From: Bacteroidota bacterium
GTDB taxonomy: Bacteria; Bacteroidota; Ignavibacteria; UBA10030
Direction: 5' to 3'
Length of the DNA: 46,974 nt
Assembly: GCA_016928255.1 (NCBI GenBank)
Contig: JAFGLB010000037.1
Span: 1-46,974 of the forward strand
Part shown: piece after piece, positions 1,786-22,513 of the stretch
How the letters are laid out: each line of letters starts with the position of its first letter
How positions within the stretch are numbered: position 1 is the first letter of the stretch
Program-made: the position numbers and the translations under genes
The notes under the pieces: generated by a model
Database searches by the model: none
What the model was told of the DNA's origin: nothing
What the model saw: the letters and a program-made list of their open reading frames with translations, nothing else

Positions 1786-1807
1786 TTTATTGTCGTTTAA
1801 TAATTTT

Positions 1808-2214: not shown

Positions 2215-2229
2215 TAACTTTTTCTCCCT

Positions 2230-2320
2230 TCACTTATTACTTATTACCTATCACTTATCACTGTTTACCGTTTACCATTTACCGTTTACTTATCACCAAT
2301 CACTTATAACTAATCACCAC
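2230..2320. repeat. Thirteen tandem 7-nt units (TYACYNN), reverse-complementary to the 1808-1849 array
   Basis: TCACTTA TTACTTA TTACCTA TCACTTA TCACTGT TTACCGT TTACCAT TTACCGT TTACTTA TCACCAA TCACTTA TAACTAA TCACCAC; two more units ACTGTTT at 2351-2364. Confidence 0.9.
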
Positions 2321-2325
2321 TTTTA

Positions 2326-2348
2326 CGAAAGCTGAAGCTTTCGGCTAC
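2326..2348 (-). repeat. GTAG-type REP-like palindrome
   Basis: Minus strand reads GTAGC-CGAAAGC-TTCA-GCTTTCG: a GTAG tetranucleotide followed by a perfect 7-bp stem. Confidence 0.55.
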
Positions 2349-2362
2349 CGACTGTTTACTGT

Positions 2363-4753: not shown

Positions 4754-4859
4754 AGCGTACCCTTTTGTATCAATCGTCAGTATTCGCTCTCAAAAATAAC
4801 AATATGCAAAATGAATCGGATTTGTATTACTTTTTCAGATTACAGGGATGAGTAATACT

Positions 4860-5369
4860 TCATTTTTCTTTTTTGCTGTTCTTGTTGAAAAAAGATACAA
4901 GTTTTCGCCAGCTGTTATGCATGTCTTCCGAAACAACTTTAACATCCGCAAGAACAGGAAAAAAATTCGTATCCCCATTCCATCTCGGGACAAGATGGAA
5001 ATGAATATGTTCTGCAACGCCGGCCCCTGCCTCTTTCCCGATATTCGCTCCAAAATTGAATCCGTCCGGCTTGCTGGTTTTTTTCAAGACCTGCATACAC
5101 CGAACCACGGTCTTCATAATTTCGATATTCGTTTCGTCGGATAATTTATCCATTGCCGAAGCATGGATATACGGCACTATCATCAAATGGCCGTTATTGT
5201 AGGGATACTTGTTCAGAAGCACAAAACACTTTTTGCCGCGCCAGATAACAAGATTATTTTCGTCATTATCTTCTTTTGCTATCCTGCAAAAAATGCATCC
5301 CTTATTTTTTTTACCGCCCTGGAAGGATTGTATATAGGCCGACCGCCATGGAGAAAACAAGCGCTTCAT
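4860..5369 (-). CDS. HIT family nucleotide hydrolase/phosphorylase (Ap4A phosphorylase-like)
   Basis: LFSPWR, CIFC, LNKYPYNNGHLMIVP, AGAG...HIHFHLVPRW histidine triad. Confidence 0.9.
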   Translation of the reverse strand: MKRLFSPWRSAYIQSFQGGKKNKGCIFCRIAKEDNDENNLVIWRGKKCFVLLNKYPYNNGHLMIVPYIHASAMDKLSDETNIEIMKTVVRCMQVLKKTSKPDGFNFGANIGKEAGAGVAEHIHFHLVPRWNGDTNFFPVLADVKVVSEDMHNSWRKLVSFFNKNSKKEK

Positions 5370-5524
5370 CTTTTCAGTATCTCTTTCATTTCAATTGATT
5401 ACATTAGAAACTGTCTGTAAGACTTTTATTAAATAATGTATCAAACAAAGATATACCAATCAAGATGATATAATCGTTAGTCTTAATCGCATTGGAACTG
5501 TATTTAAACGCTTTTACCCCTGTT

Positions 5525-6460
5525 TTACAGTTCACACTGCATATGAAGTGTGGGTACGAATTCCACAAAATTTCCATAGACATTTCGCGGTTCGATATGG
5601 CTGTGCATCCTGATCCTGCGGTTAATGCCTGACGTATTCCAGACAGCTTCCAGCGCGCTAAGAATATGGTTTGCTACTATTATGTACGTGGCTGTTGTAG
5701 CTATGTCGTAATAATCGTTCGCATCGCCGCGCATTTTGGCATAAGCTTTAAACTGATCGGATACATTTCCCAATCCGCTGTTGGCAATTACATCTGCTCT
5801 TGTAAACCAGCCCGCATCGGCCCATCCGCTGCCGAATTGAGAATATTTTCCTATCATCTCGTAGTACTGCTGGTCGCTGTAGGGCGCGAGTTTATGAGTG
5901 AATCCTGTCGGCTGTATCGACAGGTCGCCGCCGATTTCTTCCTCGATAGTATTTAATTCATCCCACTGAACTCTTTCCCATGGTTGGAGATTAACTTCCG
6001 TTTGATTGATAGCAATATTTTTACTAAAGTTGGCATTTATCCAGCCGGCATACCTGACCACCGACCAGTTTTCATCTGCGTATTTTTTAAAGTCACTTGT
6101 TTTGTCGTCGCCTTTTTTCTCATGCAGGAGATATACAGCCCATAAAACGGCTTCCGCACCCAGGAAAAGCGAACCTTTCAAATATTGTTTTGTATACAGC
6201 TGTCCTGCGCCCGGTATTACAAGCGAGAACAATCCAGCCGTTACAGGCGAGTAGAGTTTTACCTTTACAGTTTTTTTCGCAGAGACAGCGCTGTCCGCTG
6301 CTGCATCGTAATAATTGTCAGCCCGTAAATCACAAATGAGATTTCCAGTCAGAACGAATTCCTTATTTGTTTCTGCCTGACCTGTTTTATACTGGCCGTA
6401 AGCATTGAAAATAATTATTATCAGCCCGATAATTACCAATATAATTATTCGGATGTTCAT
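5525..6460 (-). CDS. Hypothetical membrane/exported protein (DUF5683-like)
   Basis: Signal peptide, SP..AGLFSLVIPGAGQLY motif, hydrophobic segments, conserved-looking QQYYEMIGKY. Confidence 0.6.
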   Translation of the reverse strand: MNIRIIILVIIGLIIIIFNAYGQYKTGQAETNKEFVLTGNLICDLRADNYYDAAADSAVSAKKTVKVKLYSPVTAGLFSLVIPGAGQLYTKQYLKGSLFLGAEAVLWAVYLLHEKKGDDKTSDFKKYADENWSVVRYAGWINANFSKNIAINQTEVNLQPWERVQWDELNTIEEEIGGDLSIQPTGFTHKLAPYSDQQYYEMIGKYSQFGSGWADAGWFTRADVIANSGLGNVSDQFKAYAKMRGDANDYYDIATTATYIIVANHILSALEAVWNTSGINRRIRMHSHIEPRNVYGNFVEFVPTLHMQCEL

Positions 6461-6464
6461 TTTA

Positions 6465-9400
6465 TCACCTCATAAATTGACGTGGTGCCATTGCATTCAA
6501 ATCAAAACCAAACAGAATTCCCAGATAGAACCGCCATTCCCTGCCGTATTGAACGGTCGTTACATTTATATCCCTTACACTTCTTGAAAATTTATCCAGC
6601 CCGTATGCCCCCGAAAAAAATATGCGTGTCGGCATGGTGTAGAAAGAAAATGCTTCCAGCCGGAGTTCAAATCCGATATCTCTTTTCCATTTATCAAAAG
6701 AAGGCATATCGCTTGTCCATGCATCCCCGACATCGTAAAACACGGAACCGTAGAGCTTTTTAAAATACAGCTGAAGAATTCTGAAATTCAATTCAGTGAA
6801 AATCGGGAATCTATAAGTCGCATTTATCGAAACCGACTTGTTGCCTCCGATTGCATAGAACGGGTAGCCCCTCATTCCCACAAACCCACCTGCATAATAA
6901 TCAAAAAACTGGTCCACTGAATCGCCAAGAATTCCCGCGGCATAGACTCCCAGCGTAAGCGTCTGCTTGTCAAGCGGAAGCTGTATATGTTCAGTCCAGT
7001 TTAATTCAAGACGATTCATATTAAATTTATTGTACACAGGAACCCTGAAGCCGTCTTTGTATTCGGCAGAGTCCCTCGGATTGTATTTATTAATATCATA
7101 AAAATATTTCAAAGTGACCAATCGTCCGACCGGATTTATTTCCCTGTCTACCGTTCTCATGATACGGTCGTATTTCAGTTGCAGAGCAAAAGAATTGCCG
7201 ATGAAATAAGTGGAGCGCGTAGCCGGGATCGGCTCCCTGAACAGCGGATGCTTCCAGCTGCCGAAATCCTGGTTATACCTGCTCAGCGCGTACACTATTT
7301 TTGCTTCGCACAGCTCTGAGACAAACTTCTGCTTTAAGGAAATATCGAACTCGAAAAGAGAATAACTCACATCTGTGTAAAAAGTCTGCAGGCCGTACGG
7401 GTGATTCGGATTATTGACATATAGATCAAACGAGATATCCCGTTTTCGGGATATACTGTAAAGCTCGAGTGAAACTACCGGTTCAAGTCCCAGCTGGTAT
7501 AGAAACGGCAATTGCCCCCTGTACTCGGTGATCAGGAAAATATCTCTTTCCCAGTTCCTGTTGATCGCCGCCCCGCCGAAAATATCCATTTTGTTTAAAA
7601 CTTCGGATGATGTAAAATAAATGCCCGGTTTAATTATATCCAGTATATTTTTGCTTTGTGTGTAATCATCAAAACGAATGAACGGCATGAACAAAACATT
7701 CGTGAATACAGGTTTATACGGCCTGACCGAATGCGGGACTGAATCGGCCGGCATTTTTTTAAAAGATATTTCGTCCCTTGCCGATGAATCCGGATACTGC
7801 GGTGCCAAAAAACTTGGTGCGTTGTTTGTAAAAGTACCGTGCATTAAATTTTCTTTATCGGATTCTTTTTGTAGAAGCGCGATTTTATAACCCGAAGATT
7901 TATAACAGGCAAAAATCAGGTTTCCTTTTTTATCCACTGAAGGGAGAAAAGCGCCTCCCAGTACGTTTGTTTCCTGCCTCTCGACACCTGTAACTAAATT
8001 CAGCGAATAAATATTATATATTCCTCCTTTGTTCCATGAATAGTAGAGAATGGAGTCAGAAGCAAAGAAAGGATTACGGCAGTCCCCGCTGTGATTGGAG
8101 ACAGCCAGACCGCTCCCGTCCGAATTGATAAACGCGACCGACTGGTTATGTGCTGTCGAATAGCCGAATGCGGTTTTCTTTCCGTCTGCCGACCAGACTG
8201 GAGTGTAAACCTGTTCTCCGTTTTGAAATCCTGTTATATTTTTAATATTGCTGCCGTCGTTATCGCATATGCCGATATTTGCAGTACCGTCTTTTCCATA
8301 AACGAAAACAAGCTTTCTGCCGTCAGGAGAAATTTTCGGATTGGATGCGCGAAGCCCGTAAGTCAGTCTCTGCTCGTCATCCGCCGATAAATCATATTTG
8401 TAAATATCGCCGTACCCCGACCAGTGCGGATTGTCGAAATCGATTCGCGAATAATAAAGATAACGTCCATCCGGTGAAAACGACAGGGATGAACGCACAC
8501 CTGACTTTATCATTCTGGATTCTTTTGTATTCAGATCATAAATATAAATTCCGCTTAGTGAAAGGTAATCCATGCCTTTGTTGGATACATATGCAATTTT
8601 TGATCCGTCCGGTGAAAACGCAGGGTAAAAATTGCCGAATCCTTCATTCTCTATAATCGTTCCTTCCCTGATCGCTGTGCCCAGGGAATCTTTCATCCTT
8701 TTATACTGATTTATTTTCTCCAGCTTCCATTCATTATAAAGCTGTTCTCCGGTCATGCCCAGAGATTCTTCAATTGCACCATCAATAGTTAATCTTAAAG
8801 GTGCGGAAATTTTTTGTGAAATCTCCTTAAGCTTATCAGCCCCGTATTTTTGAGAAATATACTCTACCAGTGAAAAACCTGAATTATACACGGACTCGTT
8901 GCCCAAACTGTTTTTACCAAACATACCCATTTCTTCCCATTCGAGCGGAGTTCCTTCTAACATATTCATTCGGAGAATCATATCCCTGTGTGAATCCCAA
9001 TAATCATAGTCCAGCGAAGGATTATTGTACTGCGCCGTGCCTTCGGCAAACCACATGGGAATTACGAAGCCGGAAAACGGATACGATGCAATGACATTCG
9101 GGTACCCGTACAGCACGTCCGGCCTTTGTTCATCTTCGTATCCGAGCCATTGCAGATAAATTCCCGGGAACTTACGGCCGAACTTCATTGATTTTTGTAT
9201 TTGTATGATATGAGTAAATTCATGCGTCACTACGTTCAACAACCATGGATGAGTACCTCTTAATTCAAAATCAAGCGAAGGTGCCCAGATTTCAATCTTA
9301 TTATCGTAAAAGTATGCACCACCGTTTGAATAATCATCATGATCCCTTATAATAATGCTTACACGCTGATCCGGTTCATGATCATACAGGCTGGTGACAG

Positions 9401-9638
9401 GTCCGAAAATGCTTTCAGCTGCTTTTGCAGCTTCGCGTGCGGTTCTTTCTGCGCCGTCATGGAAATGGACAAGAAAATGCTCCGTCTCAATTGTCTGCCA
9501 GTTGAGCTCAGGATGAAAAAATTCATCCTGTGCAAAGCATACCGATGAAATTAGAAAAGTAAAAATCAAAATAAAGATAAGTCTATGATTCAAGTTGTCA
9601 CACCGATTTTTGAAAGATTTGTTAAAAACCGCCGGCAT
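6465..9638 (-). CDS. Outer-membrane protein: gluzincin (peptidase MA-like) domain, PD40/TolB-like propeller and Omp85/BamA-type barrel
   Basis: WQTIETEHF, HEFTH plus WFAEG, repeated P.FSPDG motifs, MRGY loop motif and terminal beta strands. Start moved from 9746 to ATG 9638 (or TTG 9593) to avoid overlap with the upstream gene. Confidence 0.75.
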   Translation of the reverse strand: MPAVFNKSFKNRCDNLNHRLIFILIFTFLISSVCFAQDEFFHPELNWQTIETEHFLVHFHDGAERTAREAAKAAESIFGPVTSLYDHEPDQRVSIIIRDHDDYSNGGAYFYDNKIEIWAPSLDFELRGTHPWLLNVVTHEFTHIIQIQKSMKFGRKFPGIYLQWLGYEDEQRPDVLYGYPNVIASYPFSGFVIPMWFAEGTAQYNNPSLDYDYWDSHRDMILRMNMLEGTPLEWEEMGMFGKNSLGNESVYNSGFSLVEYISQKYGADKLKEISQKISAPLRLTIDGAIEESLGMTGEQLYNEWKLEKINQYKRMKDSLGTAIREGTIIENEGFGNFYPAFSPDGSKIAYVSNKGMDYLSLSGIYIYDLNTKESRMIKSGVRSSLSFSPDGRYLYYSRIDFDNPHWSGYGDIYKYDLSADDEQRLTYGLRASNPKISPDGRKLVFVYGKDGTANIGICDNDGSNIKNITGFQNGEQVYTPVWSADGKKTAFGYSTAHNQSVAFINSDGSGLAVSNHSGDCRNPFFASDSILYYSWNKGGIYNIYSLNLVTGVERQETNVLGGAFLPSVDKKGNLIFACYKSSGYKIALLQKESDKENLMHGTFTNNAPSFLAPQYPDSSARDEISFKKMPADSVPHSVRPYKPVFTNVLFMPFIRFDDYTQSKNILDIIKPGIYFTSSEVLNKMDIFGGAAINRNWERDIFLITEYRGQLPFLYQLGLEPVVSLELYSISRKRDISFDLYVNNPNHPYGLQTFYTDVSYSLFEFDISLKQKFVSELCEAKIVYALSRYNQDFGSWKHPLFREPIPATRSTYFIGNSFALQLKYDRIMRTVDREINPVGRLVTLKYFYDINKYNPRDSAEYKDGFRVPVYNKFNMNRLELNWTEHIQLPLDKQTLTLGVYAAGILGDSVDQFFDYYAGGFVGMRGYPFYAIGGNKSVSINATYRFPIFTELNFRILQLYFKKLYGSVFYDVGDAWTSDMPSFDKWKRDIGFELRLEAFSFYTMPTRIFFSGAYGLDKFSRSVRDINVTTVQYGREWRFYLGILFGFDLNAMAPRQFMR

Positions 9639-9640
9639 TT

Positions 9641-12600
9641 CTATTTTACAACGGCAATTTTTATCAGAGCTGTGCTGCTTTGAGCGGCTCCCTTTGCTTC
9701 GACGCGCGCAAGATAAATGCCGCTCTGGATATTTGAAACATGCCATATTATCTCGTTATCCATACCGGCTGTTCCTTTTCCCTTCAACTCTGTTATTTTT
9801 ACACCGGAAAGATCGATAATTGTTATTGTGATATCTGAATTTTCCGATGTATAATAGCGGATATGCGTTAAACTGCCGTAAACCGGATTCGGCCAGTTAT
9901 AAACGCGTGATTTCGGAAAGAACTCGCTGCTGATAGGCCTTGCGACCATTATGCTTGTATCCGCATTCAGGTGCTGCTCGCTTCCTAAGTGCTGGTACCA
10001 GTAAAAGACCCTGCCTGCTGTCGAGGTACCCGTAAGAAACGCATTTAATTCCCCGTCTTCTGTAATAACCGCTATACCTAATTTATTTTGCGGGTACGGA
10101 CTTTCATATAATACCGGCTGCGCTTTTCCGCCTGCCGCCTGGATCGGGAATCCGGTCTGTAATTTTCCATCTCCCTCATGGATCCACATTGCACCATTAT
10201 TTGTCATTAACAGAATTTCCGGCCTGGCATCGCCGTCAAAATCGGCAACTAGCGGTGTACCTGAAAATTCCAGCCCGGCTTTAACGGTTATCGGGAATCC
10301 GTCAAGCATCAGGCCCATGCGGTTAAGAACGACAACCCGGAGTTTTGATTGGATTATTATATCTTTTTCGCCGTCCCCGTCAATATCGGCTACGGCAGTT
10401 TCCTGAATCTCGTCTCCGTCCAAAACAATGTCGAAATTTTTATTTTGCAGAAATCCGTCGAATGAAACAACCCTGGTACCGTTCTTTTCAAATGCGGCAA
10501 TAAAATTACCTTTGGGTGAAACCGCTGCGGCCAGCATCCAGCCGTATGCAGAATTGGGAAGCTCAGCCGAATCCTGCTCGCTGTAGATATAATTTCCAGA
10601 TGTGAAATAGCTGCTCTCTGATGATGATCCCGGAAGAACCGCAATAGACGATACTTCACCCGTGCCCGCGGAACGTCCTGAAATCAGTCTGCCGTCTGCA
10701 CTGTATTTATAGAATCCTTTTTCAGCTCCTACCAGAATATACAACGAATCGAAATTTACAATACACGGAGACGCGGTAATTTTATTCTCTACTACTGCGG
10801 TCGTTAAGACTACTGGATCCCCTGCAGTTGAAATATTAAATATACGAAGAGTATCATCATTGGCGCTTACAGCCATTTCTGTATTGCCGGACAATTTGCA
10901 TACCGCAACACCAAAATCTGATTTTACCGCCGAGATGAGCGGCGAAAATCCGGGTGACAATCCATTGCCGTCATTTTTAAAAGCGTAAATCCCGTTTTCA
11001 GCAGGAATATAAATATGATTTCTGGTTGATGTGGGGTACAAATTGGTGTTCGAGAGTGTCCGGCACAAAGCGGAATCTTTAACCAGCACGCTATTTCCTA
11101 TTTCCACATCTATGGACATGCGTTCGGATCTTTGACTGAAATTATTTATTGCGATCAAACTGGCGGCGCCAGAATGACTATTGCTGTTCGGAAATGAATT
11201 CAGGTCAAAGCTGTTTTTATACAGAAAAGCCGGATTGCCGGAGAACCAGCAGTCGAGCGGACTGCCGTATTCGGTACCTGATTCGTATGAAAGATCTTCA
11301 TATTTCTGCCCGATATCTTTTGATCCGTCCGCTTCCTTCAATTCCACACCGCGATGTTCGATATCTGCATTCACGGTATTTGATTTCAAACCCTCCTTGA
11401 TAACATTCTCATCTATATGCCAAATCAGAATTCCGCCGCCGTCGTATTTATCTGTTGTGTCCGACATTTCACCTATAAGAGCCCAATCATAACTACTTAC
11501 ATCTACTACCGAACCTTTGATGGTGTCGATATCGTAATACTTGAAACCTTTTATATCTTTTTCAAAGTGTACGATCGAGTCGCCGTTCAGGCCGGCAAAT
11601 GTCAGGTAAATGCCTGCTCCGTATGGATTTCTAATTCTATTTTCAACCAGAAAATATTCTGAGTTATTAATCGGAATGCGGTAAATAGTATCTTCTGCGG
11701 CATCGTTTAATCCTACCGCAGGCACTGATAAATTCTGTACAGAATTACCGGCAGTAATCGGAGTTACCCAGCCCAGGAACACTTTTTCCCATGCATTAGG
11801 TTCGGGAGGAAATAATCCGTTATACGCGAAGAAGCCTGCACCGTCCATCAATCCGAATTGGCCTATCCCTGAACGGCCTGTTTTAGTATCGAACAGATCC
11901 GGCAATCGCAGATAACTGCCTATTGAAGCGGCAAATAATCCGTTAATGCTCAGGTTAAGCTTAACACCATCAATTTCTCTTGATTCCGTTTCGGGCAGAA
12001 TAATTGTGTTTTTCACATTACCGTTTACAAGGCCGTTAAATGCAGATTGGTTTAACGCAGCGGCCAGTGCGGTAGAATCCAGATATAAAGACGGAATATC
12101 GAACGGAGCCGGATTATATCCCAGAGAACTTAAAAGATCTATATCGCGCCCTACGCCTGCATGGAAAACAACAAACAAATCGTAATCGGCGAAATTAATT
12201 CCGGAATAACTGCTTTCTGCCGCAATCCAGCTCTCCTGTGCCAGCTCGGCCAGTTTTCTATTGTCTGCCATTGTTGTAGGCGGAGAGTAGCTGGACATAG
12301 TTTTTGCAAGTACAACCCGCTGTCCGAGCAGTTCGCCTTTTACCGTCAGTCTCCCGTCAGATACCTTGCGGAAATAATTCTCGACAAAACGTATTTTATT
12401 TCGAAAATAAACTGAATCATGCGGCGGCGGATCAACCTGCTCCCGTGATCCGGTCATTATGAAGGTACCGTCTCCGGTGGTTTCATCAGTATTATCTGTC
12501 TGGAATTCGACCATCACTGCAAGAATACGAACAGTATCGACCGAATTCGGCAAAATAGAATTGGAAAAAAAAGGGACATCTACACTGCCGAGACGATGAT

Positions 12601-12703
12601 TAATTTTGAATTGTATCTGCCCTTCTACTGAAGAACCGATAAGCAATAAAGCCAACACCCAGTTACGTATCACAGATATTCCTTTTTTTTCCATACAAAG
12701 CAT
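9641..12703 (-). CDS. T9SS cargo: M6 (immune inhibitor A)-like domain with degenerate zinc motif, FG-GAP repeats and C-terminal sorting domain
   Basis: ILAVMVEF, VFHAG, LPDLFD, GLMD, AWEKVFLGW, EYFLVENR, GILIWHID; ADIDGDG/ADFDGD repeats; YNWPNP...SGIYL...IKIAVVK CTD. Confidence 0.8.
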   Translation of the reverse strand: MLCMEKKGISVIRNWVLALLLIGSSVEGQIQFKINHRLGSVDVPFFSNSILPNSVDTVRILAVMVEFQTDNTDETTGDGTFIMTGSREQVDPPPHDSVYFRNKIRFVENYFRKVSDGRLTVKGELLGQRVVLAKTMSSYSPPTTMADNRKLAELAQESWIAAESSYSGINFADYDLFVVFHAGVGRDIDLLSSLGYNPAPFDIPSLYLDSTALAAALNQSAFNGLVNGNVKNTIILPETESREIDGVKLNLSINGLFAASIGSYLRLPDLFDTKTGRSGIGQFGLMDGAGFFAYNGLFPPEPNAWEKVFLGWVTPITAGNSVQNLSVPAVGLNDAAEDTIYRIPINNSEYFLVENRIRNPYGAGIYLTFAGLNGDSIVHFEKDIKGFKYYDIDTIKGSVVDVSSYDWALIGEMSDTTDKYDGGGILIWHIDENVIKEGLKSNTVNADIEHRGVELKEADGSKDIGQKYEDLSYESGTEYGSPLDCWFSGNPAFLYKNSFDLNSFPNSNSHSGAASLIAINNFSQRSERMSIDVEIGNSVLVKDSALCRTLSNTNLYPTSTRNHIYIPAENGIYAFKNDGNGLSPGFSPLISAVKSDFGVAVCKLSGNTEMAVSANDDTLRIFNISTAGDPVVLTTAVVENKITASPCIVNFDSLYILVGAEKGFYKYSADGRLISGRSAGTGEVSSIAVLPGSSSESSYFTSGNYIYSEQDSAELPNSAYGWMLAAAVSPKGNFIAAFEKNGTRVVSFDGFLQNKNFDIVLDGDEIQETAVADIDGDGEKDIIIQSKLRVVVLNRMGLMLDGFPITVKAGLEFSGTPLVADFDGDARPEILLMTNNGAMWIHEGDGKLQTGFPIQAAGGKAQPVLYESPYPQNKLGIAVITEDGELNAFLTGTSTAGRVFYWYQHLGSEQHLNADTSIMVARPISSEFFPKSRVYNWPNPVYGSLTHIRYYTSENSDITITIIDLSGVKITELKGKGTAGMDNEIIWHVSNIQSGIYLARVEAKGAAQSSTALIKIAVVK

Positions 12704-12744: not shown

Positions 12745-13830
12745 TTACTCTCCACTGTCCCAGCCTATCGATAATGTGAGGCGTAATGTTCCGTCAAGCG
12801 GCTCTTCGCCTTCAAGTGTGCTGATGTATCCGAAATCGAAGCCGTAGAGGTCATATCTTATTCCCGCACCTACTGTCCAGAATTTTCTGTTGCCTTCACG
12901 AGGATCTTCATAGAAATATCCGGCGCGAACCGCTATCAATTTTGGCGAGCCGTACCAGTATTCCACACCCAGCATAGAATTGAACCTGCGCAATTGTTCG
13001 CTGATATTGCCCTGCGACCAGGTTGTAAAAATTGCTTCATAGAACTCGTCCGATTTGGCATCTCTTCTTCTTACCAACAGCCGGTTTACTTCAGCAGTGA
13101 CAGTAAGGTTGTTATATTCGCTCTGTAATGCTTTATAAGCTACACCGAGACGGAGGCTCATGGGAAGCGGATCCGCCTGTTCTCTATCCACATACGAAAT
13201 ATTAGGTCCGACATTAGCCAGCTTTAAGCCAAAGCTCATAGTAGTGTCAAGAAAATACGGTTTCCAGAGTAAGCCGACATCAAAGCAGAATCCGGAAGCA
13301 GTTCCGCTTCCGACTTCCATTCCTGCTCCCTGGTCGGCAAGATGCGAATAAATAAATCTTGCGGTGGTACCTATTCCAAGCTGATCGCTTATATTAGTAC
13401 TGTATGTAGCCGCAACAGCCAGCTCATAACCGGTAAATTTTCCGATAGGATCAGGTCCCGACGCACTCGTTCTGATAAATTCACCTAGATTTAAATACGT
13501 TAACTGGCCGCCGATAACTCCGTCGAGCATCTCAACAGGCTGTTTATAAGCCACATGTGCTATCCAGATATCGGAAAGGCCGAGGCCGGGAAGCCATTGA
13601 GTGTGAGTTAATGCCAGTTCTGAACCTTGCTGAAAAGCAAGTCCTGCCGGATTCCAGAACACAGCCCAAACATTATCCGCAATTGCCACGCCTGTTTCGC
13701 CCATACCGCCGGCACGTGAATCCGGTATAATAGTAATAAACGGTACAGCCGTAGTCTGCGTCTGTGCTTGCATAGTATTCTGAACAAATAATATGAATAC
13801 AGAGAGAACCGCTATAATCCTTTTTTTCAT
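12745..13830 (-). CDS. porV: Type IX secretion system outer-membrane shuttle PorV
   Basis: TTAVPFITIIPDSRAGGMGE, FWNPAGLAF, WLPGL, NVGPNISY, RAGYFYE...GNRKFWTVGAG; immediately downstream of porU; GGAGG SD. Confidence 0.9.
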   Translation of the reverse strand: MKKRIIAVLSVFILFVQNTMQAQTQTTAVPFITIIPDSRAGGMGETGVAIADNVWAVFWNPAGLAFQQGSELALTHTQWLPGLGLSDIWIAHVAYKQPVEMLDGVIGGQLTYLNLGEFIRTSASGPDPIGKFTGYELAVAATYSTNISDQLGIGTTARFIYSHLADQGAGMEVGSGTASGFCFDVGLLWKPYFLDTTMSFGLKLANVGPNISYVDREQADPLPMSLRLGVAYKALQSEYNNLTVTAEVNRLLVRRRDAKSDEFYEAIFTTWSQGNISEQLRRFNSMLGVEYWYGSPKLIAVRAGYFYEDPREGNRKFWTVGAGIRYDLYGFDFGYISTLEGEEPLDGTLRLTLSIGWDSGE

Positions 13831-13963
13831 TTAAGTGACCTCCAGACTGTTAATTTAAAATGCTTTTCATTTTTCTTATTGATTCATATAATGCAGTTTG
13901 CTAGAAATCTTAGAAAATCAAAAGTAATATCGGGTTTTTAACACCATTTTCGAGAATTCTATT

Positions 13964-14021
13964 GGGCTAAAGCCCGCTCCATTTTGTTTATTCAGTTCCA
14001 CGACCTAAAGGTCGTGGCAAT
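13964..14021. repeat. Pair of TAAA-loop palindromes (REP / IS200-IS605-end-like element)
   Basis: GGGC-TAAA-GCCC (13964-13975) and CCACGACC-TAAA-GGTCGTGG (13998-14017) followed by CAAT. Confidence 0.55.
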
Positions 14022-14090
14022 TCATCTAATGAAAACAATTTATTTTCTCTGCATATTATCAGTATTAATAAAATTTTTCCCCTCGTTTCG

Positions 14091-17000
14091 TTAACGTACT
14101 ACTGCAAGCTTTCCTATTGCTTCGCTTGTATTGCGGCCGTCCAGGGTTCGGGCAATTAATTTATACAGGTAGACGCCATTAGCAATCTCTCCGCCGTCGC
14201 TGTCTCTTCCATCCCAGGGGATCTTCACAGAACGGTCTGTAATATTATAAGCGTTCAGCCTGCCTATCAGCCTTCCTGCTATCGTATAAATTTTTACCTC
14301 GACATCAACCGGGTCAACACCGGTTCTTTGGAAAGTAAATGTGGTGGAGCTTGTAAATGGATTCGGGTAATTTACTACATTGAGCAGGGAGAGGTTATCC
14401 GCAAGCGTTATTGTAAAATAAACCTCTGCTTCCGCCGAATTGTTTTGTATATCCCATGCCTTTACACGAAGAGTGTATTTGCCTTCACCCAGGTCATTCA
14501 ACTGGTACCGCGCTTCGCCGGATTTATATGTATCGTAATCGCTCTGGTAATAGTTAGACAGGTTAATAATACGTTCATCGTTATTTATAGAAGCCGACAG
14601 CTGGTGGCCGACGCCTGCAGCCGATGTATTGATGCCGCTCTCGTCGTAAAATTTCACTATCAGCGTCGGATTGATATTCACGGCATCCCCGGAACGGAAA
14701 TCCAGGTCATTCATATAGACTGAAATTTGAGGCCCCTCGCCGTCGTTATTTGCAGATGCAGCAGAATCAACACCGTTTATCATAATATTTTCAGTATAAC
14801 CTGTCCCGTCAACTGCATCGTTCCATGCATACATCGATATTCTTGACCTGTTTCCGAAAGTGACATCCTTCGGGATCGGAATTGTCGCATTGAATTTTCC
14901 ATCCTGAATAGTCACTCCCCCCCGGTACAACAGACTGCCTTTTTTCTTGAAAATAAATGTTGCACTACCTTCCGTAATCTGGACATCCCTTTGTGAATCG
15001 AAAACCTGCAGTATTCCCTTTCCCTGAAAAGAAGTAACGGGTGTGCCGTCATTCAATCTCATCGAACCCCGAACGGGGACGTGCGCCAGCGATTTCATTT
15101 CCACCAGACTTGTTGCCGGGTGTCCGTTCACGCTGTCGATAGAGGTTACATTCTTCGGTGCAGTCAACCTTAATGTGGGATCGGCAAATAAATGAAACTT
15201 TTGTGCGTTCTCAACATCATCATTGCCTGCACTCGCGAGAATAGTTGATTTAGCATATTTTGAGGCATCACCAAGCCGTGAAGCTCTTCCATTTGCATCT
15301 TTTAAAAACAAATACTCGAAAAAAGCATTATTCAAATTGACATTCCGTGTATTTTGAACTGCACGAGATGCCGCGTATGTTCCAATAGCGCCATTTTCCA
15401 TTGTTACAAGCTGTTCGCCTGAACTTAAGACATTTGGACCGTCGTACTTACTATATGAACAAGTCGCTGCAAATATGAAAGGTAATTTATCCTTATTCTT
15501 AAGTTTAGGAAATTCGTCGTCTTGAACAAATATATGCTCATGCGCCCATAATTGATCGTTTCCATGTCCGATAAAATTCATGAATAACGTTCCCTGATTT
15601 ATCGCTTCAACAATTGCTTTATTCGCATCAGGTTTTCTGCGGCCTGACGCACTGTTTACTGTGGGGTATTCGATGATAAAAATCTTCTTTACTTCAAATT
15701 TCTTTGCCGAATTACTCTCCGCAAATCTTTCTGACGGATGGGTATATATTGCTTCATCGTCTCTTTCCGGCGTCCACCCGTCGTCTGCAACAAATGTCAG
15801 AACATTCCGCCAGGCGGAGGAATCAGCAAACGCATTTGTCTCATATGAAATGATTTTATTGACCACAATCGATGCTTCTTCGGCACTTCTTACCGGAAGA
15901 CGTCCAATCGCGGCAAAATATACATTTACATTCGGATCCAAAAGTACAAATTTATCATCTGTCGGATAACTCGAGTTTACTATATTAAACGACTCTTCCG
16001 GCTCGAACGGCGGAATCCAGTTCTTTTTGCTTGTAGTCTTATTTTTATAGTCAAAATGGCCCCATCCAAAAAGCAGAAAATACTGCGGCGCACCTGTCCA
16101 ATTATCCCGGGTATATCTTACAAATTCACGTATTGCCAGAACATCCGGTATCCCTCCTCCGAATTCACTGTAAATATGATTGATATCCACAACCAATGTG
16201 CGAAGGCTATCGCGTGTTTCCCTGTGTGTTTTCAACTGATTTGCCTGAGTTAAAAATTCAGTCGGTGAGATTATGACAAAATCATACTGCGATTGCGTAT
16301 TATGTAAATTTATCGTGTTATCAATTTTTACCGGCGGAACGGGAGTTTTATACCCGTTCGTACCGATTACAGCAATTTCGCGGACAGTTCTGCTTGCCAG
16401 CTGCACCTGAATCCGGCACATAGTCGGATCAGCTGAATAAAATTTCAATTCCTTAACATTGCCATGCTCTGTGACATCAAATGCACGTACATTTCCTGAA
16501 AAATTGCTGATGTCATATTGTACAATATCGTCGAAACTGTCGTGCGTATGGAAGAACAAGGCATCGTTCACCGCTTCGAAATTCCGGTCATAGAACATTT
16601 CTATCCAATCCAGCCAGGTTTTGGACTCCTGGTTCCCTGTTACCTGGATCTTTATTTCGCCTGCTCCAGTAGTATTCCCCCATGCTGTAAATGATACTTC
16701 TGATGCATAATAATCACTGCTGCCGCCCCTGTTTAAAGTATTTTTCAGTATAGACTGGCCGTTTTCAAAAATTTCCAGATTATCAACATATGAGGAATTG
16801 CGCAAAAATTTGAATTTATACGTCACTTTACTCGATGCCATAAGCCCGTGGAAAGTTCTGTTATATGCTGCTTCATCGGTACCTGAAAAATATTCTCCAG
16901 CCCACCTGCGCCCTGAATTCTGCAGGTTAAATTTTTCCTCTTCAATAAACATTTTTTCCTGGAAGCCTGTAGGTTTTATTGCAGAAGGCGAGACTGCAGA

Positions 17001-18062
17001 TGCAGAGACCGTATCCATCTGTCTGCCGTTACCCTGGTTATATGTAAAGAAATAAAAATTTTTTTCAGAGTAAGGATTGATATAATGCTTAAAGTTGCTG
17101 CTTCCGTCATAGACGTAATTCCAGCCGCTCGTACCGCGTCCGAAGAATATTATATAATCATCAGGATCAAAAACACCATTGCTGTTTTGGTCGCAGACCA
17201 GCCGGGAAATTTCCTCCAGCCCGTTGGGTCTTGGAGTAGTATTATCGTCAGGTATCGCCTGCCCGCCGTTCCCGAACAAGCGGATGGAATTTATATCTGT
17301 AATATTAAGGCCGCTGAAATATGAATATCCCAGTTTGTACATTCCAGTTTCAGTCACGTCGATCCGGTACCAGCTGCCCTGAGTGAGCGGAAAATCTGTT
17401 TTGGCGGATTGTTTATAACTTGCCTTTATCATTTTCTGCAGATGGGCTTTTGAGGGCTTCTCGCCTCTCATCAGGCAAGTCGATTTTAAACCAGCTGGGA
17501 AAGAATTTCTAAAATCGATTCTGACAACGATGCGTGAATAGATCCTTGCCTTTTCTCTATCGACTGCCTGTACGGGGTGCAGAACAAGAGTCCCGACATG
17601 CCCTATACTTGTTTTTCCCACGTTTGTCATTGCTGCAAGTATTTTTTGTTCAGGCGCGTAAGCAGTTCTTTCGAAACTTGAATCATCATAGGTTTCTGAA
17701 TAGCCTAATTCCTTGAGTTCTATAATAGTTGGTTTCGGCAGCAGTTTTACAGAATCTCTGGTCTGGTATTCGCTTGCGATCACTTGAAGCGAGAACCCGT
17801 CCGACGGCAAGAGTAAAAGCAAGGGCCGTATAAAATCCGTTCTTCCGGACGAATCGTACGCAGTTTGACTGCCGTAGAATAGAAACCGGGTAAATACAGT
17901 CCCCTGGTTTCCGGTCACGTATTCGGTTTTAATTTGCGGTGTAAATTCAATGACCAGTGAAGACTGGTCTTCGCTTAAAACACGTATATCGGTCATAAGC
18001 TGTGCATCGACAGCTGTAACTGCGAGTACACAGGCGAAGAAGAGTAAGATTGATTTTTTCAT
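14091..18062 (-). CDS. porU: Type IX secretion system sortase PorU (peptidase C25, gingipain fold)
   Basis: L..GSWYRIDV..TGMYKL, IGRLPV, FVADDG, catalytic FIGHG...WAHE and AATC, D.EGPQI, KAWD..NNS, NYPNPF CTD. Confidence 0.92.
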   Translation of the reverse strand: MKKSILLFFACVLAVTAVDAQLMTDIRVLSEDQSSLVIEFTPQIKTEYVTGNQGTVFTRFLFYGSQTAYDSSGRTDFIRPLLLLLPSDGFSLQVIASEYQTRDSVKLLPKPTIIELKELGYSETYDDSSFERTAYAPEQKILAAMTNVGKTSIGHVGTLVLHPVQAVDREKARIYSRIVVRIDFRNSFPAGLKSTCLMRGEKPSKAHLQKMIKASYKQSAKTDFPLTQGSWYRIDVTETGMYKLGYSYFSGLNITDINSIRLFGNGGQAIPDDNTTPRPNGLEEISRLVCDQNSNGVFDPDDYIIFFGRGTSGWNYVYDGSSNFKHYINPYSEKNFYFFTYNQGNGRQMDTVSASAVSPSAIKPTGFQEKMFIEEEKFNLQNSGRRWAGEYFSGTDEAAYNRTFHGLMASSKVTYKFKFLRNSSYVDNLEIFENGQSILKNTLNRGGSSDYYASEVSFTAWGNTTGAGEIKIQVTGNQESKTWLDWIEMFYDRNFEAVNDALFFHTHDSFDDIVQYDISNFSGNVRAFDVTEHGNVKELKFYSADPTMCRIQVQLASRTVREIAVIGTNGYKTPVPPVKIDNTINLHNTQSQYDFVIISPTEFLTQANQLKTHRETRDSLRTLVVDINHIYSEFGGGIPDVLAIREFVRYTRDNWTGAPQYFLLFGWGHFDYKNKTTSKKNWIPPFEPEESFNIVNSSYPTDDKFVLLDPNVNVYFAAIGRLPVRSAEEASIVVNKIISYETNAFADSSAWRNVLTFVADDGWTPERDDEAIYTHPSERFAESNSAKKFEVKKIFIIEYPTVNSASGRRKPDANKAIVEAINQGTLFMNFIGHGNDQLWAHEHIFVQDDEFPKLKNKDKLPFIFAATCSYSKYDGPNVLSSGEQLVTMENGAIGTYAASRAVQNTRNVNLNNAFFEYLFLKDANGRASRLGDASKYAKSTILASAGNDDVENAQKFHLFADPTLRLTAPKNVTSIDSVNGHPATSLVEMKSLAHVPVRGSMRLNDGTPVTSFQGKGILQVFDSQRDVQITEGSATFIFKKKGSLLYRGGVTIQDGKFNATIPIPKDVTFGNRSRISMYAWNDAVDGTGYTENIMINGVDSAASANNDGEGPQISVYMNDLDFRSGDAVNINPTLIVKFYDESGINTSAAGVGHQLSASINNDERIINLSNYYQSDYDTYKSGEARYQLNDLGEGKYTLRVKAWDIQNNSAEAEVYFTITLADNLSLLNVVNYPNPFTSSTTFTFQRTGVDPVDVEVKIYTIAGRLIGRLNAYNITDRSVKIPWDGRDSDGGEIANGVYLYKLIARTLDGRNTSEAIGKLAVVR

Positions 18063-18106
18063 AAAAAAAAAGCCGATCGAGAAATTTTGGTTATCTCGTT
18101 CGGCTT
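18063..18106 (-). terminator. Intrinsic terminator in the porU leader
   Basis: AAGCCGAACGAGA / TCTCGATCGGCTT stem (12 of 13 bp) followed by a T run that abuts the porU ATG. Confidence 0.75.
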
Positions 18107-18120
18107 AAAATATATGTTAA

Positions 18121-18226
18121 GAGAGCTTCAGCCGAACTTGAATAAGGTTCCTACGGCAAATACAATCCCTAACTTTTTCCACGACAATTTAGGAATGAAC
18201 CTTTATCAAGCCTTCGATAAACTCTC
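18121..18226 (-). ncRNA. Unassigned structured leader RNA (rod-like hairpin of about 106 nt)
   Basis: Nested helices GAGAGTTT/AAGCTCTC, TCGAA/TTCGG, CTTGA/TCAAG, AAGGTTC/GAACCTT, ATTCCTAA/TTAGGGAT; three G-U pairs favour the minus strand. Confidence 0.55.
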
Positions 18227-18251
18227 CATTAATAGTAAGCAACTAGTGATT

Positions 18252-18280
18252 AAGATAATAAACTGATTGAATATTGTCAA
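18252..18280 (-). promoter_or_regulatory. Sigma70-type promoter for the porU leader
   Basis: TTGACA-17 nt-TATCTT on the minus strand. Confidence 0.65.
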
Positions 18281-18343
18281 GCTTGGCCGAAGAATAACAA
18301 TCGTGGTAAAACGCTCAGTGTTATTGATAATTTAAGAATTGTT

Positions 18344-18372
18344 TTGCAGTTGTGGCAATATTTGGGTAAATT
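18344..18372 (+). promoter_or_regulatory. Possible sigma70 promoter for glgA
   Basis: TTGCAG-17 nt-TAAATT; weak match in an AT-rich region. Confidence 0.3.
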
Positions 18373-18406
18373 GTAATATTAATGAATTTATTTACAATCG
18401 GGTGAT

Positions 18407-19888
18407 ATGTCAAAACCACTTAACATTCTATTTGTATCGAGCGAAGTAGAACCATTCGCCAAAACCGGCGGATTAGCCGATGTTTCAAGCGCTCTTCCCA
18501 AAGCGGTAAAAGACCTTGGTCATGAAATCCGCATAATAATGCCGCGTTACAGATTCATAGGCGAGCGCAAGTTCAAGCTGCATGATATTATACGGCTGCA
18601 CGGGATTCCTATTCCGGTTGGAAATTCAACCGAGCTCGGCGACGTAAAGTCGTCATTTATAGACAACTTAAAGGAAAAGGTTCAAGTCTATTTTCTCGAT
18701 AATACAAACTATTTTGGCAGGGACGGCGTTTACCAGAGTCCGACTACAAAAAAAGATTACAAGGACAATGATGAACGTTTCATATTCTTCTGCCGTGGGG
18801 TAATAGAGACGCTGAAGCGCCTTGGCTGGCAGCCTGACATTGTTCACTGCAACGACTGGCAATCGGGACTCATTTCTGCCTACCTGAAAACGATGTTCGC
18901 GGCCGATCCATTTTTCAAATCGATGAAGACTGTTTTTACTATTCATAATATGGGATACCAGGGATCTTTTCCGAAGGAGTCGTTCGTTAAATCAAATTTA
19001 CCAGAGGAGTTATTCCGTACAAACGGCGTTGAAGCTTACGGCAGTTTCAACTTTCTGAAAACCGGGCTGTTTTTCTCTGACTCCATTACAACTGTCAGTG
19101 AAAAATACGTTGAAGAGATCTGTTCATCTCCGGAAATCGGCGCCGGCTTGAACGGACTTTTATCATCCAGGCGTAAAGACCTGCACGGCATACTCAACGG
19201 AATAGACTACCAGATCTGGAATCCAGCCACTGATGAATTTTCATTCCGTAAATATGATGTAAAGTCCATCGAGGCAAAGGTTGATAATAAACGGGCTTTG
19301 CTCGCAAAATTCGGACTGGAATTTTCTGAAAACCGGCCTTTGATCGGGATGATAAGCCGGCTTGCAGACCAGAAAGGATTTGATCTTCTCTTCGATATCA
19401 TGGAAGAGCTTGTAAAACTTGATCTGCAGCTTATAATGCTGGTATCCGGTGATAAAGAATACGAAAAGAAAATTGAAAATATACAGAAGAAGCATTCGAA
19501 ACGAATTGCGGTGGTTATCGGATATGATAATGAAGTTGCACATTTGATTGAAGCCGGAACTGATATGTTCCTCATGCCGTCTAAGTATGAACCTTGCGGA
19601 CTTAACCAGATGTACAGCATGCGCTACGGTACGGTTCCCATAGTACGAGCGATAGGCGGATTGGACGATACTGTTGAAGATTATTCGGGCAGCGGAAAAG
19701 GCACCGGATTTAAATTTGAAAAATATGAATCAAAAGAATTGATGAAAGTTATTCAGCGTGCATTAAAGGTCTTCCAGCAGCCGGAGGAATGGAAACGGCT
19801 TATGCGGAACGGCATGCTTAAGGATTTTTCATGGGAAAATTCTGCACGGAAATACATCAATCTGTACAAAGAACTTATTAAAGCATAA
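18407..19888 (+). CDS. glgA: Glycogen synthase (GT5)
   Basis: SEVEPFAKTGGLADV, HCNDWQ, GILNGID, MPSKYEPCGLNQ, GGLDDTV. Confidence 0.95.
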   Translation: MSKPLNILFVSSEVEPFAKTGGLADVSSALPKAVKDLGHEIRIIMPRYRFIGERKFKLHDIIRLHGIPIPVGNSTELGDVKSSFIDNLKEKVQVYFLDNTNYFGRDGVYQSPTTKKDYKDNDERFIFFCRGVIETLKRLGWQPDIVHCNDWQSGLISAYLKTMFAADPFFKSMKTVFTIHNMGYQGSFPKESFVKSNLPEELFRTNGVEAYGSFNFLKTGLFFSDSITTVSEKYVEEICSSPEIGAGLNGLLSSRRKDLHGILNGIDYQIWNPATDEFSFRKYDVKSIEAKVDNKRALLAKFGLEFSENRPLIGMISRLADQKGFDLLFDIMEELVKLDLQLIMLVSGDKEYEKKIENIQKKHSKRIAVVIGYDNEVAHLIEAGTDMFLMPSKYEPCGLNQMYSMRYGTVPIVRAIGGLDDTVEDYSGSGKGTGFKFEKYESKELMKVIQRALKVFQQPEEWKRLMRNGMLKDFSWENSARKYINLYKELIKA

Positions 19889-20042: not shown

Positions 20043-21269
20043 ATGCGAGGAAAAAATTTGAAATTACCCCGTCTCTTACCCCCTTTTTGTATGGCGGTTA
20101 TTCTGTTTTTGTTTTACGGATGCAACGATGGCCCGGATTCAGTCGGTGCAGGAACCCAGCCGTCGGGTGATTTCGGCGTGATTCAGGTCGACACATTATA
20201 CGCAACCGGACACAGCTCGCTTAAAACCCATCTATATTCTTCAACAAGCAAAATATTTATGCTGGGTAAGTACAAATCATACGAGGCTTGGGCCTGCTTA
20301 GGATTCGCTACCTGGCCGGATTCCATGATCGGCGTAACTGTTACAGGCGCGACAATCAGGTTAAGATCCGCTTACCATTTCGGCCGGCCGATGTCTTCTT
20401 TGCCGGTCAATATATATCGTGCGCGCGCAAATTGGTCGGGTACAACACTCACTTTCGATTCTCTCTACTTAAATTCCGCTCCGCAATCTGTCTATGGATA
20501 TTACTATGACATAAACAGCGGTCACTCCGCAACAATCCAGGCAGGCGATACCGATTGGGTCACAATAAGCATCCAGGATACCAGCATGCTTCGCGAATGG
20601 TTTTCGACCAATACCGACACACTGGAATTGAACAGCGGACTGGTGATTCGCCCCGATCCTTCCAATGCGATCAGAGGTTTTTATACTTATTATTCTGCAG
20701 ACACCTCTTATATGCCTGCATTGTATGTAAATTATATAAGTGAAAATGGCATCCAGACTTATGAACACAAAATTAGTTATTCAAGATTCGTTACTACTGC
20801 AGATTATGCGAGCATTGTTTCAGATCCCAAACTGGTTTATATACAGAGCGGAATCTCGTACAGGGGACTGATTTCGTTCGACAGCCTTCTGTCTGTGTGG
20901 CCAGTTTCCATTCATAGAGCCGTGCTCGAAGTGACATTAAATAAAGAAAAATCATCTTCCAGTTTCAGCCCTTTTTCAATTCCTTTTTCGAACGATTCAC
21001 TATATGCTTTTTCTGTCGGACAGGATAGTACAGCCGACGGATCGTACTATGCATTATGCAAGAATACAACGGACAGTTACGGCAATACGGTTTATTCATT
21101 TGAAGCAGCATCACTTGCCAACCTATGGCATAATAATTTTCTAATTCGTAAAGTTACTCTAAGCGGATATTCGGAAAGCACTACATTTGATTTATTTACG
21201 CTGTACGGCGAAGCTGCTGAGAAAAATCTTAGACCGCGAATCATAATAACATATTCTGCCAAACGCTGA
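20043..21269 (+). CDS. Surface lipoprotein, DUF4270-like
   Basis: Lipobox FYG-C followed by acidic NDGPDSVG, beta-rich body, C-terminal RPRIIITYS; position after glycogen synthase as in Bacteroidota. Confidence 0.55.
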   Translation: MRGKNLKLPRLLPPFCMAVILFLFYGCNDGPDSVGAGTQPSGDFGVIQVDTLYATGHSSLKTHLYSSTSKIFMLGKYKSYEAWACLGFATWPDSMIGVTVTGATIRLRSAYHFGRPMSSLPVNIYRARANWSGTTLTFDSLYLNSAPQSVYGYYYDINSGHSATIQAGDTDWVTISIQDTSMLREWFSTNTDTLELNSGLVIRPDPSNAIRGFYTYYSADTSYMPALYVNYISENGIQTYEHKISYSRFVTTADYASIVSDPKLVYIQSGISYRGLISFDSLLSVWPVSIHRAVLEVTLNKEKSSSSFSPFSIPFSNDSLYAFSVGQDSTADGSYYALCKNTTDSYGNTVYSFEAASLANLWHNNFLIRKVTLSGYSESTTFDLFTLYGEAAEKNLRPRIIITYSAKR

Positions 21270-22513
21270 TGAATCATTTTATGAAATATCGCAACATAAT
21301 CATACTTGCTGTATTATCTTTTTTCTGCTGTTCGTATGCAGCAGCGGGCGGGTCTTCTTATTCGAGATACGGATTCGGTGATATACTTCGTTATGGAGAC
21401 AGCCGGATATACTCTATGGGAGGGACGGGTATCGCCCTTTTGGATAATGGAAGCATAAACCTTTTAAATCCCGCCGGTATCAGCCGGATAAACACCACAA
21501 GATTTTCAGCCGGTGCGGAATACAACAGCTTTTCATCAAAAGACGAAAGCGGATCGTCTTCCTATTCTTTCGGCGGCTTTCAAGGCATTGCTTTTGCAAT
21601 TCCCATATCACCTGAAAACGGAGTTGCTATTTCGTTAGATGCCACTCCATACAGCAAAGTGAGTTACTCAATTAACTCTTCGAATCTCGATCCGTTGTCA
21701 GGATCATTCCAGCACCAGACTTTTTACGGCAGCGGCGGACTTTCCTGTCTCGGACTCGGCATTTCCGTTTCGCCTTTCAGCACACTGCATGTAGGCGGAC
21801 GTGCCGGCTATATTTACGGCCGAATAAGACAATATCAAATTTCCACTTTCGACAGCAGCGGCTATTTAAAAACAGAATTCGACCGCTCTATATATCATTC
21901 CGGTTTTGCTTTCAATTTCGGCGCAATATACGAAGGCCTTACAAGGATATTCGATCTCCCTTCAGAAAATCATTTGTATTTCGGCTTCACAATCAGAACA
22001 GCCTGCTCTCTTGATGCCGAAGCCGAAAGAACTTATACCGACACTACTTCAATTGAAAACGGAACTGCCGAAATACCGCTTTCAGCAGGGATCGGATTAT
22101 CATTTTTATATAAAAACAAGTACAGATTTCTTGGAGATATAGTAATTGAAAACTGGGGCGATTTAAAACCTTTTTCTATAGATCCGGCCGAGCTTCGTAA
22201 TTCGTACCGCGCCAGCGCCGGCTTCGAAGCTTTGCCGTCAAGGGGTGCCGACAATTTTTGGAAAAAATTATGTTACCGGGTTGGATTTTTCTATAACTCG
22301 ACTTATTATAAGGTCAATGGAATCGGAATCAACGAATACGGTTTTACAGGCGGAATCGGCCTTCCCCTCGGATATGATTCGTGGTTAAATATCGGAGCAC
22401 AAGCGGGATTCCGTGGTACTACAGATAACAGCCTGCAGAAAGACATGATTGTCCGTCTTTCTGTTGCAATTACAGCCAGTGAACTATGGTTTCTAAAATT
22501 TGATGAAGAGTGA
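21269..22513 (+). CDS. FadL/PorV-like outer-membrane beta-barrel
   Basis: Signal peptide, SSYSRYGFGD..SMGGTGIA..INLLNPA plug motif, alternating beta strands, C-terminal ELWFLK; TGATG overlap with the upstream gene. Confidence 0.75.
   Translation: MNHFMKYRNIIILAVLSFFCCSYAAAGGSSYSRYGFGDILRYGDSRIYSMGGTGIALLDNGSINLLNPAGISRINTTRFSAGAEYNSFSSKDESGSSSYSFGGFQGIAFAIPISPENGVAISLDATPYSKVSYSINSSNLDPLSGSFQHQTFYGSGGLSCLGLGISVSPFSTLHVGGRAGYIYGRIRQYQISTFDSSGYLKTEFDRSIYHSGFAFNFGAIYEGLTRIFDLPSENHLYFGFTIRTACSLDAEAERTYTDTTSIENGTAEIPLSAGIGLSFLYKNKYRFLGDIVIENWGDLKPFSIDPAELRNSYRASAGFEALPSRGADNFWKKLCYRVGFFYNSTYYKVNGIGINEYGFTGGIGLPLGYDSWLNIGAQAGFRGTTDNSLQKDMIVRLSVAITASELWFLKFDEE

Follow-up and report, generated by a model that had tools for sequence, protein, structure and literature searches.

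A conserved structured leader upstream of the type IX sortase gene porU in Ignavibacteria: a candidate terminator/antiterminator attenuator

[quoted passage not shown] The question arises from a stretch of 46,974 nt, here called the window, for which a first-pass annotation had proposed an attenuator or riboswitch-like leader at this place. On the minus strand of the window, porU is followed by porV, whereas glgA (18407-19888) is encoded on the plus strand. The genes and the parts of the leader referred to below are as follows.

14091..18062, minus strand: porU, T9SS sortase, 1323 aa, first gene 3' of the leader (NF033707, 928 bits; Peptidase_C25, 1.4e-88)
12745..13830, minus strand: porV, 361 aa, the gene that follows porU on its strand (matches to NF033709/NF033710 and PF19572)
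18275..18280, minus strand: -35-like hexamer TTGACA, promoter motif; a TTGACA-type box also lies 5' of the leader in relatives
18252..18257, minus strand: -10/-7-like box TATCTT; TATCTT(T) is kept in the genus alignment, and TATATTT stands at the equivalent place in other families
18063..18245, minus strand: predicted leader transcript of ~180 nt; 3' end at the U tract if terminated, 5' end by prediction
18219..18227, minus strand: 5' strand of P1 (GGAGAGUUU), pairing with 18120-18128
18120..18128, minus strand: 3' strand of P1, from the predicted fold and the genus alignment
18206..18217, minus strand: 5' strands of P2a and P2b (UCGA, 2-nt bulge, GCUUGA), part of region 1, the putative anti-antiterminator
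18197..18203, minus strand: 5' strand of P3 (AAGGUUC), within the most conserved block UUGNUAAAGGUU; invariant columns
18165..18196, minus strand: P4, an 8-bp hairpin whose apical loop has 16 nt (18188-18173); length and sequence vary among genera
18151..18164, minus strand: J4/3, a 14-nt one-sided bulge; variable, with an extra hairpin in some families
18132..18150, minus strand: 3' strands of P3, P2b and P2a, region 2; predicted partner either region 1 or the terminator 5' arm
18130..18137, minus strand: putative antiterminator strand GUUCGGCU; 15 of the 16 genus sequences share it exactly, and the other ends in C instead of U
18094..18106, minus strand: terminator 5' arm, region 3; contains AGCCGAAC (18098-18105), invariant in the genus
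18070..18082, minus strand: terminator 3' arm, region 4; variable, in contrast to the fixed 5' arm
18063..18071, minus strand: U9 tract, abutting the porU ATG (18062)

The wider surroundings are rich in genes for the cell surface. A gap of 260 bp (13831-14090) separates the porU stop from the porV start, and further same-strand genes (window 802-12703, minus strand) follow 3' of porV: they encode a 1020-aa T9SS cargo protein (Por_Secre_tail, FG-GAP), a 1093-aa PD40-repeat protein, a DUF5683 protein, a HIT-family protein, a Wza-like polysaccharide exporter (SLBB/Poly_export) and a Wzz-like chain-length protein. Together with porU and porV they may constitute one long surface-assembly cluster. 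On the other side, glgA is adjoined by a gene for a 408-aa DNRLRE-domain protein (20043-21269), and the 414-aa open reading frame after it (21269-22513) gave no Pfam match. Three metatranscriptome contig sets of the same study had no match on 17800-18500, which has no bearing either way.

The predicted promoter, TTGACA-17 nt-TATCTT (18280-18252, minus strand), agrees with the consensus at 10 of 12 positions and is found exactly where the first-pass annotation had placed it. The TATCTT box presumably resembles the TAnnTTTG box of Bacteroidota. This likeness draws in part on excerpts of PMC9723704. Downstream of the promoter, a rod of five nested helices (9, 4, 6, 7 and 8 bp) is predicted, and the helices, the 16-nt apical loop and the 14-nt bulge correspond to the earlier description; its length had to be corrected from 106 to 108 nt (18227-18120, minus strand). 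The rod is followed by a hairpin of 12 pairs (-15.8 kcal/mol), 7 + 5 pairs flanking a single A/A mismatch (18106-18094 with 18082-18070) and enclosing an 11-nt loop, and then by U9. By its sequence this is an intrinsic terminator, and both its 12 pairs out of 13 and its U tract, which runs to 18063 and so touches the porU AUG, were described correctly beforehand. A simple terminator scan did not list the hairpin, because it permits loops of 3-8 nt only. The 186-nt stretch as a whole folds with a minimum free energy (MFE) of -53.5 kcal/mol, compared with -37.1 +/- 4.0 kcal/mol for 200 dinucleotide shuffles (z -4.13), none of which was as good. Within this structure, GTTCGGCT at 18137-18130 is an exact 8-nt complement of AGCCGAAC at 18105-18098, just as the first-pass annotation had it.

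None of the known RNA families accounts for this segment. Searches of the whole window with Rfam 15 gave no match at gathering score, and the four matches in E-value mode were all far below cut-off (SpF39 at 21/60 bits and 6A at 19.6/41.2 bits among them), in line with the initial impression that TPP, SAM, cobalamin, c-di-GMP and SRP signatures are lacking. Our literature searches, directed at riboswitches of Ignavibacteria or of porU and at noncoding RNAs, leaders or terminators of the T9SS, turned up no such leader. The main text of PMC11109978 contains no mention of Ignavibacter, Melioribacter, C25, type IX, porU or Chlorobi; supplements of this paper or of other motif catalogues might list the leader. 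Regulation of the T9SS is described at the protein level in the excerpts of PMC9723704, through PorX/PorY and ECF sigma factors, and porU of Flavobacterium psychrophilum appears there among the genes with SM6-type promoters, which are attributed to an ECF-type sigma factor.

The position of the leader relative to porU is kept over long evolutionary distances. Within the genus, BLASTN placed the leader directly 5' of porU in all 15 genomes, with identity down to 70%; for one of them (G006) the BLASTN match covered only 29 nt, and the full leader was obtained via local BLAST and alignments. R1, a covariance model built on the entire leader, returned one true copy in this genome (18063-18229, 167 bits), the sole other match being the terminator read on the opposite strand. 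Across the family, R1 detected it in 73 of 86 genomes and in all but one of the 33 genera (32 of 33), with a single copy in each genome. At each of 14 distant family loci that were fetched the leader lies immediately before porU, and in 11 of these glgA is divergent.

Beyond the family, the models became insensitive, and loci were therefore judged by eye. A second model (R2) found family members but missed the families f2 and f8; it held only 4 base pairs, owing to a poor consensus fold from the tool itself. The third (R3) was built on the structure derived in this analysis and was run with stricter filters. Since R3 missed known positives (0/3 in f8, 0/1 in f5), all counts of the distribution are lower bounds. 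Among 13 weak order-level matches that we examined, eight lie before porU, one before a gene for a Wzx-like flippase followed by porV, one (L158) at a contig end, and three were false (L159, L162 and L165, discarded because all are inside coding sequence). Five porU loci from families without a model match were inspected as well: at four of them the leader was directly recognisable by eye, and at the fifth it stands 5' of a flippase gene that precedes porU. Of the nine families of the order that were sampled, at least seven have the leader (f1, f2, f4, f5, f7, f8 and f9); it was also seen in at least five further families of the class, with related and divergent but still recognisable versions in f21 and f22. 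No leader was seen within 330 nt of porU in the families f13 and f11.

At the class level, 16 R3 matches outside the family were examined, of which 13 lie directly before porU and one before three genes and porU; one was ambiguous (L183) and one (L195) was discarded as false after inspection. The ambiguous leader, on G302:C55, is followed only by matches to the C-terminal sorting-domain region of PorU, not to its N-terminus, and the downstream gene may encode a different T9SS protein. A phylum-level sample of 151 genomes, including this one, yielded no true match outside the class: the only two that fell there were false, one being an ordinary terminator hairpin after a gene (L196) and the other a piece of coding sequence (L198).

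In three lineages other genes come directly after the leader. A gene for a Wzx-like flippase (Polysacc_synt) lies between leader and porU in G027 (L213:2679-3923, family f4), genes for AMP-binding-like, CapA-like (PGA_cap) and flippase proteins do so in G215 (flippase gene at L212:2887-4122), and in G040 (L154:136-1401) a Wzx-like flippase gene separates leader and porV. The leader still occupies the 5' end of the operon in all three. Where it directly precedes porU, the U tract ends 0-25 nt from the start codon across the leaders examined, which leaves no space for a separate porU promoter, so that porU must be transcribed through the terminator.

Conservation of the structure was examined in the genus and in the order. 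The alignment of 16 genus sequences is 80% identical; CAAGUUCGG and AGCCGAAC show no variation in it, and the remaining antiterminator positions (CUGA) differ in at most two of the 16. RNAalifold retained all helices on this alignment, and the P1 column pair 8/112 illustrates the compensatory exchanges (GC:7, UA:7, UG:1, GU:1). Among 51 order-wide sequences, base pairing holds for 80% of the cells, 14 of 24 pairs show changes in both partners, none of 500 shuffles reaches the covariation score and slid controls are at most 53% paired; these figures lean towards the modelled structure, which was derived from the same sequences, and the counts overstate independence because the sequences are related. 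The P3 pairs 36-40 with 169-173 are standard in 45-51 of the 51 sequences, and all five modelled P4 pairs have changes on both sides. The expectation that a genuine RNA structure would be conserved was thus borne out by compensatory changes across the family, the order and much of the class.

The order-wide core consists of a purine-rich P1 strand of GGAG type, a base helix formed by a YUAUAG / UAUCGA element, and a long helix in which the near-invariant block UUGUUAAAGGUU is paired to ACCUUU(A/G)(A/U)C. The interior of the rod varies, from a loop of ~20 nt (f17) up to one or two variable hairpins. Most of the conservation resides inside helices, while loops and bulge are variable, which is untypical of small-molecule aptamers. 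On these grounds the leader is real and conserved, and it is without prior description as an RNA switch in the literature that we found.

A rod and a terminator side by side would not in themselves make a switch. The terminator is unusually conserved in sequence across the order, as (A)GCCGAAUG..., and a script located a hairpin with a U-rich tract in all 54 leaders examined (in L063 and L164 the U tract is non-canonical, and the hairpin was located by a relaxed search). Since the terminator 5' half mimics that of the rod, the rod 3' half can pair with either of the two. When the rod 3' half was paired by RNAduplex with the terminator 5' half plus loop, z was below -2 in 40 of 54 leaders (200 shuffles; mean z -2.97; one row of the set, L155, was mis-cut), and at most five of 200 shuffles were as good in 38 of 54. 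The remaining 14 leaders, with a duplex z above -2, are counter-cases. Together with the exact complement in the window, this is consistent with the mutually exclusive folds suggested by the first-pass annotation.

The complementarity between rod 3' half and terminator 5' arm (2:3 in the numbering used below) is realised by different sequences in different families: AUUCGGU / GCCGAAU plus GCCUUU / AAGGC in f1, CCUUUAACAU / AUGUUAAAGG in f2, UUUGACA / UGUCAGGG in f5 and AGACCUUU / AAAGGUCU in f17. In our view, the upkeep of the complementarity by such varied means argues for an alternative structure that would be in use. For f1, 84.8% of the cells of this helix are paired, as against at most 46.6% when it is slid; one pair switches from A-U (20) to G-C (7), with 12 of 40 cells non-standard in that pair's helix position, and the covariation is modest, as 27 of 500 shuffles reach it. 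The genus of the window keeps only the 8-10 bp part GUUCGGCU(GA) / (UU)AGCCGAAC, and since the pairing is invariant there, covariation cannot test it. The contrast between an invariant terminator 5' arm and a varying 3' arm is as would be expected of a strand with two partners.

Further hints come from lineages with a different design of the 3' part. Leaders of f27 (L181, L182 and L187) and f4 (L213:2380-2620) have no separate hairpin; the U run comes directly after the closing stem P1, so that closure of the sensor would itself make the terminator. In f22 (L209) a helix overlaps the porU start codon, and in f21 (L208) a perfect palindromic helix of ~20 bp takes the place of the UUAAAGG block. 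The expression platforms thus appear to vary between lineages as in riboswitches, and in every variant closure of the sensor is predicted to amount to termination or occlusion.

We consider it probable that the leader is a cis-acting conditional intrinsic terminator with four pairing regions, situated in the 5' UTR of the porU-porV operon. The four are the rod 5' half (1), the rod 3' half (2), the terminator 5' arm (3) and the terminator 3' arm (4). According to this proposal, a closed rod (1:2) would leave region 3 to form the terminator (3:4), and transcription would stop one base before the porU AUG. If the rod were held open, region 2 would instead pair with region 3 (in the window, GUUCGGCU with AGCCGAAC), and read-through into porU and porV would result. 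Such read-through would call for an input that holds region 1 or blocks closure, be it a protein, an RNA or slow folding. Another possibility is that a ligand tunes the speed of rod closure. That termination happens, and that it is conditional, is what we infer from these features. As a leader of the T9SS sortase operon, the role assigned to it in the first-pass annotation, the element is supported by the covariation, its place at the head of the operon, the kept complementarity and the absence of an Rfam match.

The energies indicate which of the two states would prevail. For the full transcript, rod plus terminator has -51.4 kcal/mol versus -39.7 kcal/mol for the forced antiterminator fold, a gap of ~12 kcal/mol; before the terminator 3' arm is made, the values are -37.0 versus -30.4 kcal/mol, a gap of ~7 kcal/mol in favour of the closed rod. 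Given that the rod-plus-terminator state is much more stable, the default is probably OFF, i.e. termination. When the transcripts are truncated, the MFE structure engages most of the terminator arm with upstream sequence in only 11 of 54 leaders, which speaks against the proposal. As to the nature of the input, we would put a protein or a trans-acting RNA first, a small-molecule ligand (a true riboswitch) second and a physical or kinetic signal last, none of the three reaching even chances.

How does this proposal relate to known systems? Classical trp-type attenuators comprise four regions that pair as 1:2, 2:3 and 3:4. The porU leader shares with them three mutually exclusive helices, 1:2, 2:3 and 3:4, followed by a U tract, with the intrinsic terminator just before the first gene, but it has no conserved leader peptide. 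An ATG reading frame of at least 4 codons precedes P3 in only 18 of 54 leaders and ends at P3 in 16 of 54, and the spacer varies in length, so that no leader reading frame is kept. With such a frame in a minority of the 54 leaders and not conserved, ribosome-mediated (leader-peptide) attenuation was ruled out.

Riboswitches with terminator/antiterminator platforms, for example those of the purine and SAM classes, act as transcriptional OFF switches. Like these, the leader has a conserved, covarying and folded 5' UTR domain and a platform fold that excludes part of the sensor fold, the 3' strand of the closing helix being the alternative partner of the terminator 5' arm; differing expression platforms between lineages are a further likeness. 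Unlike these, it has no ligand assignment and belongs to no Rfam 15 family, its conserved nucleotides are largely in helices, and its sensor is no more than a rod, the interior of which may be reduced to a loop, and it is linked to a single operon.

Leaders that depend on a protein or an RNA for antitermination include the BglG/SacY RAT, PyrR, TRAP and T-box systems. They terminate by default and need a factor-dependent refolding for read-through, and the strong bias of the modelled leader towards the OFF state would fit this type best. On the other hand, none of their signature motifs was recognised in the leader, nor did this analysis yield a candidate for the binding protein or RNA. The f27/f4 variants, with P1 directly followed by a U run, recall the terminator-embedded aptamer of the HMP-PP (thiS) riboswitch as it appears in excerpts of PMC6478431; sequence and fold are unrelated as far as these excerpts go, and the copy in the window has a separate terminator hairpin. 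Judged by its sequence features, the leader is probably a cis-regulatory attenuator of the terminator/antiterminator type, a new member of this known kind.

An RNA leader of this kind, present throughout the class before the sortase/shuttle operon, would add a second, RNA-based layer to the control of the T9SS. It is a compact and experimentally tractable orphan-switch candidate, and its natural platform variants suggest the logic (sensor closed = OFF). Gene context gives little clue to the signal, because the leader is linked to a single operon; the only hint to a ligand would be the link to surface glycan and secretion genes. In some lineages the same leader stands before a Wzx-like flippase gene, which connects the expression of the secretion sortase with surface-polysaccharide genes and restricts where the signal is to be sought. 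From this we derive, tentatively, a more specific and rather doubtful possibility: the leader could represent an orphan riboswitch class, the first RNA sensor known for the T9SS, binding a molecule of the cell envelope such as a surface-glycan precursor and coupling porU/porV (and in some lineages the Wzx-like flippase) to its supply.

Two other readings dispense with a switch in cis. The leader might be a constitutive leaky terminator plus a stable 5' rod, which would set a low fixed level of porU/porV or protect the mRNA 5' end, with nothing being sensed. We consider this unlikely. The thermodynamically favoured OFF state and the concentration of conserved positions in helices are in keeping with it, as is the fact that no ligand, protein or leader peptide was identified in this analysis, but an attenuator of fixed strength would not require the terminator 5' arm to keep a conserved second partner or to be invariant in sequence across the class, nor would it account for a complementarity maintained through different sequences per family.

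Quite unlikely, too, is a stand-alone trans-acting small RNA of ~180 nt with promoter and terminator of its own, porU being expressed by leaky read-through. The strong promoter-like site, the canonical terminator and the single copy per genome would suit such a gene, and with the terminated state ~12 kcal/mol more stable, the short transcript is probably abundant. Against it, the element is invariably found at the head of the porU/porV operon and in one orientation, without space for a second promoter, and the terminator 5' half co-varies with the rod 3' half; variants in which a separate terminator is missing or the porU start is overlapped make no sense for an independent gene. The evidence for a role in cis is compatible with an additional role in trans, i.e. 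a dual function of the conditional terminator proposed here.

That the leader is a short 6S-like RNA (a bubble-bearing rod that binds RNA polymerase), as had been offered as an alternative at the outset, is very improbable: the rod shape with its one-sided 14-nt bulge and the lack of RF00013 and RF01685 matches in this genome at E <= 1 would speak for it, but the leader matches neither 6S model, its interior is only a ~20-nt loop in f17, so that no bubble is conserved, and RF00013 matches occur at other loci in four leader-bearing relatives (G047, G020, G080 and G212; 38-47 bits, G212 over the cut-off). One of these loci, whose RF00013 match scores 44.4/46.4 bits in the relative, has a 77%-identical homologue on the minus strand of another contig in this genome (G000:C144:4775-5034, corresponding to L206:1501-1760). 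This copy gave no Rfam match at E <= 1 and is probably the divergent 6S RNA of the lineage.
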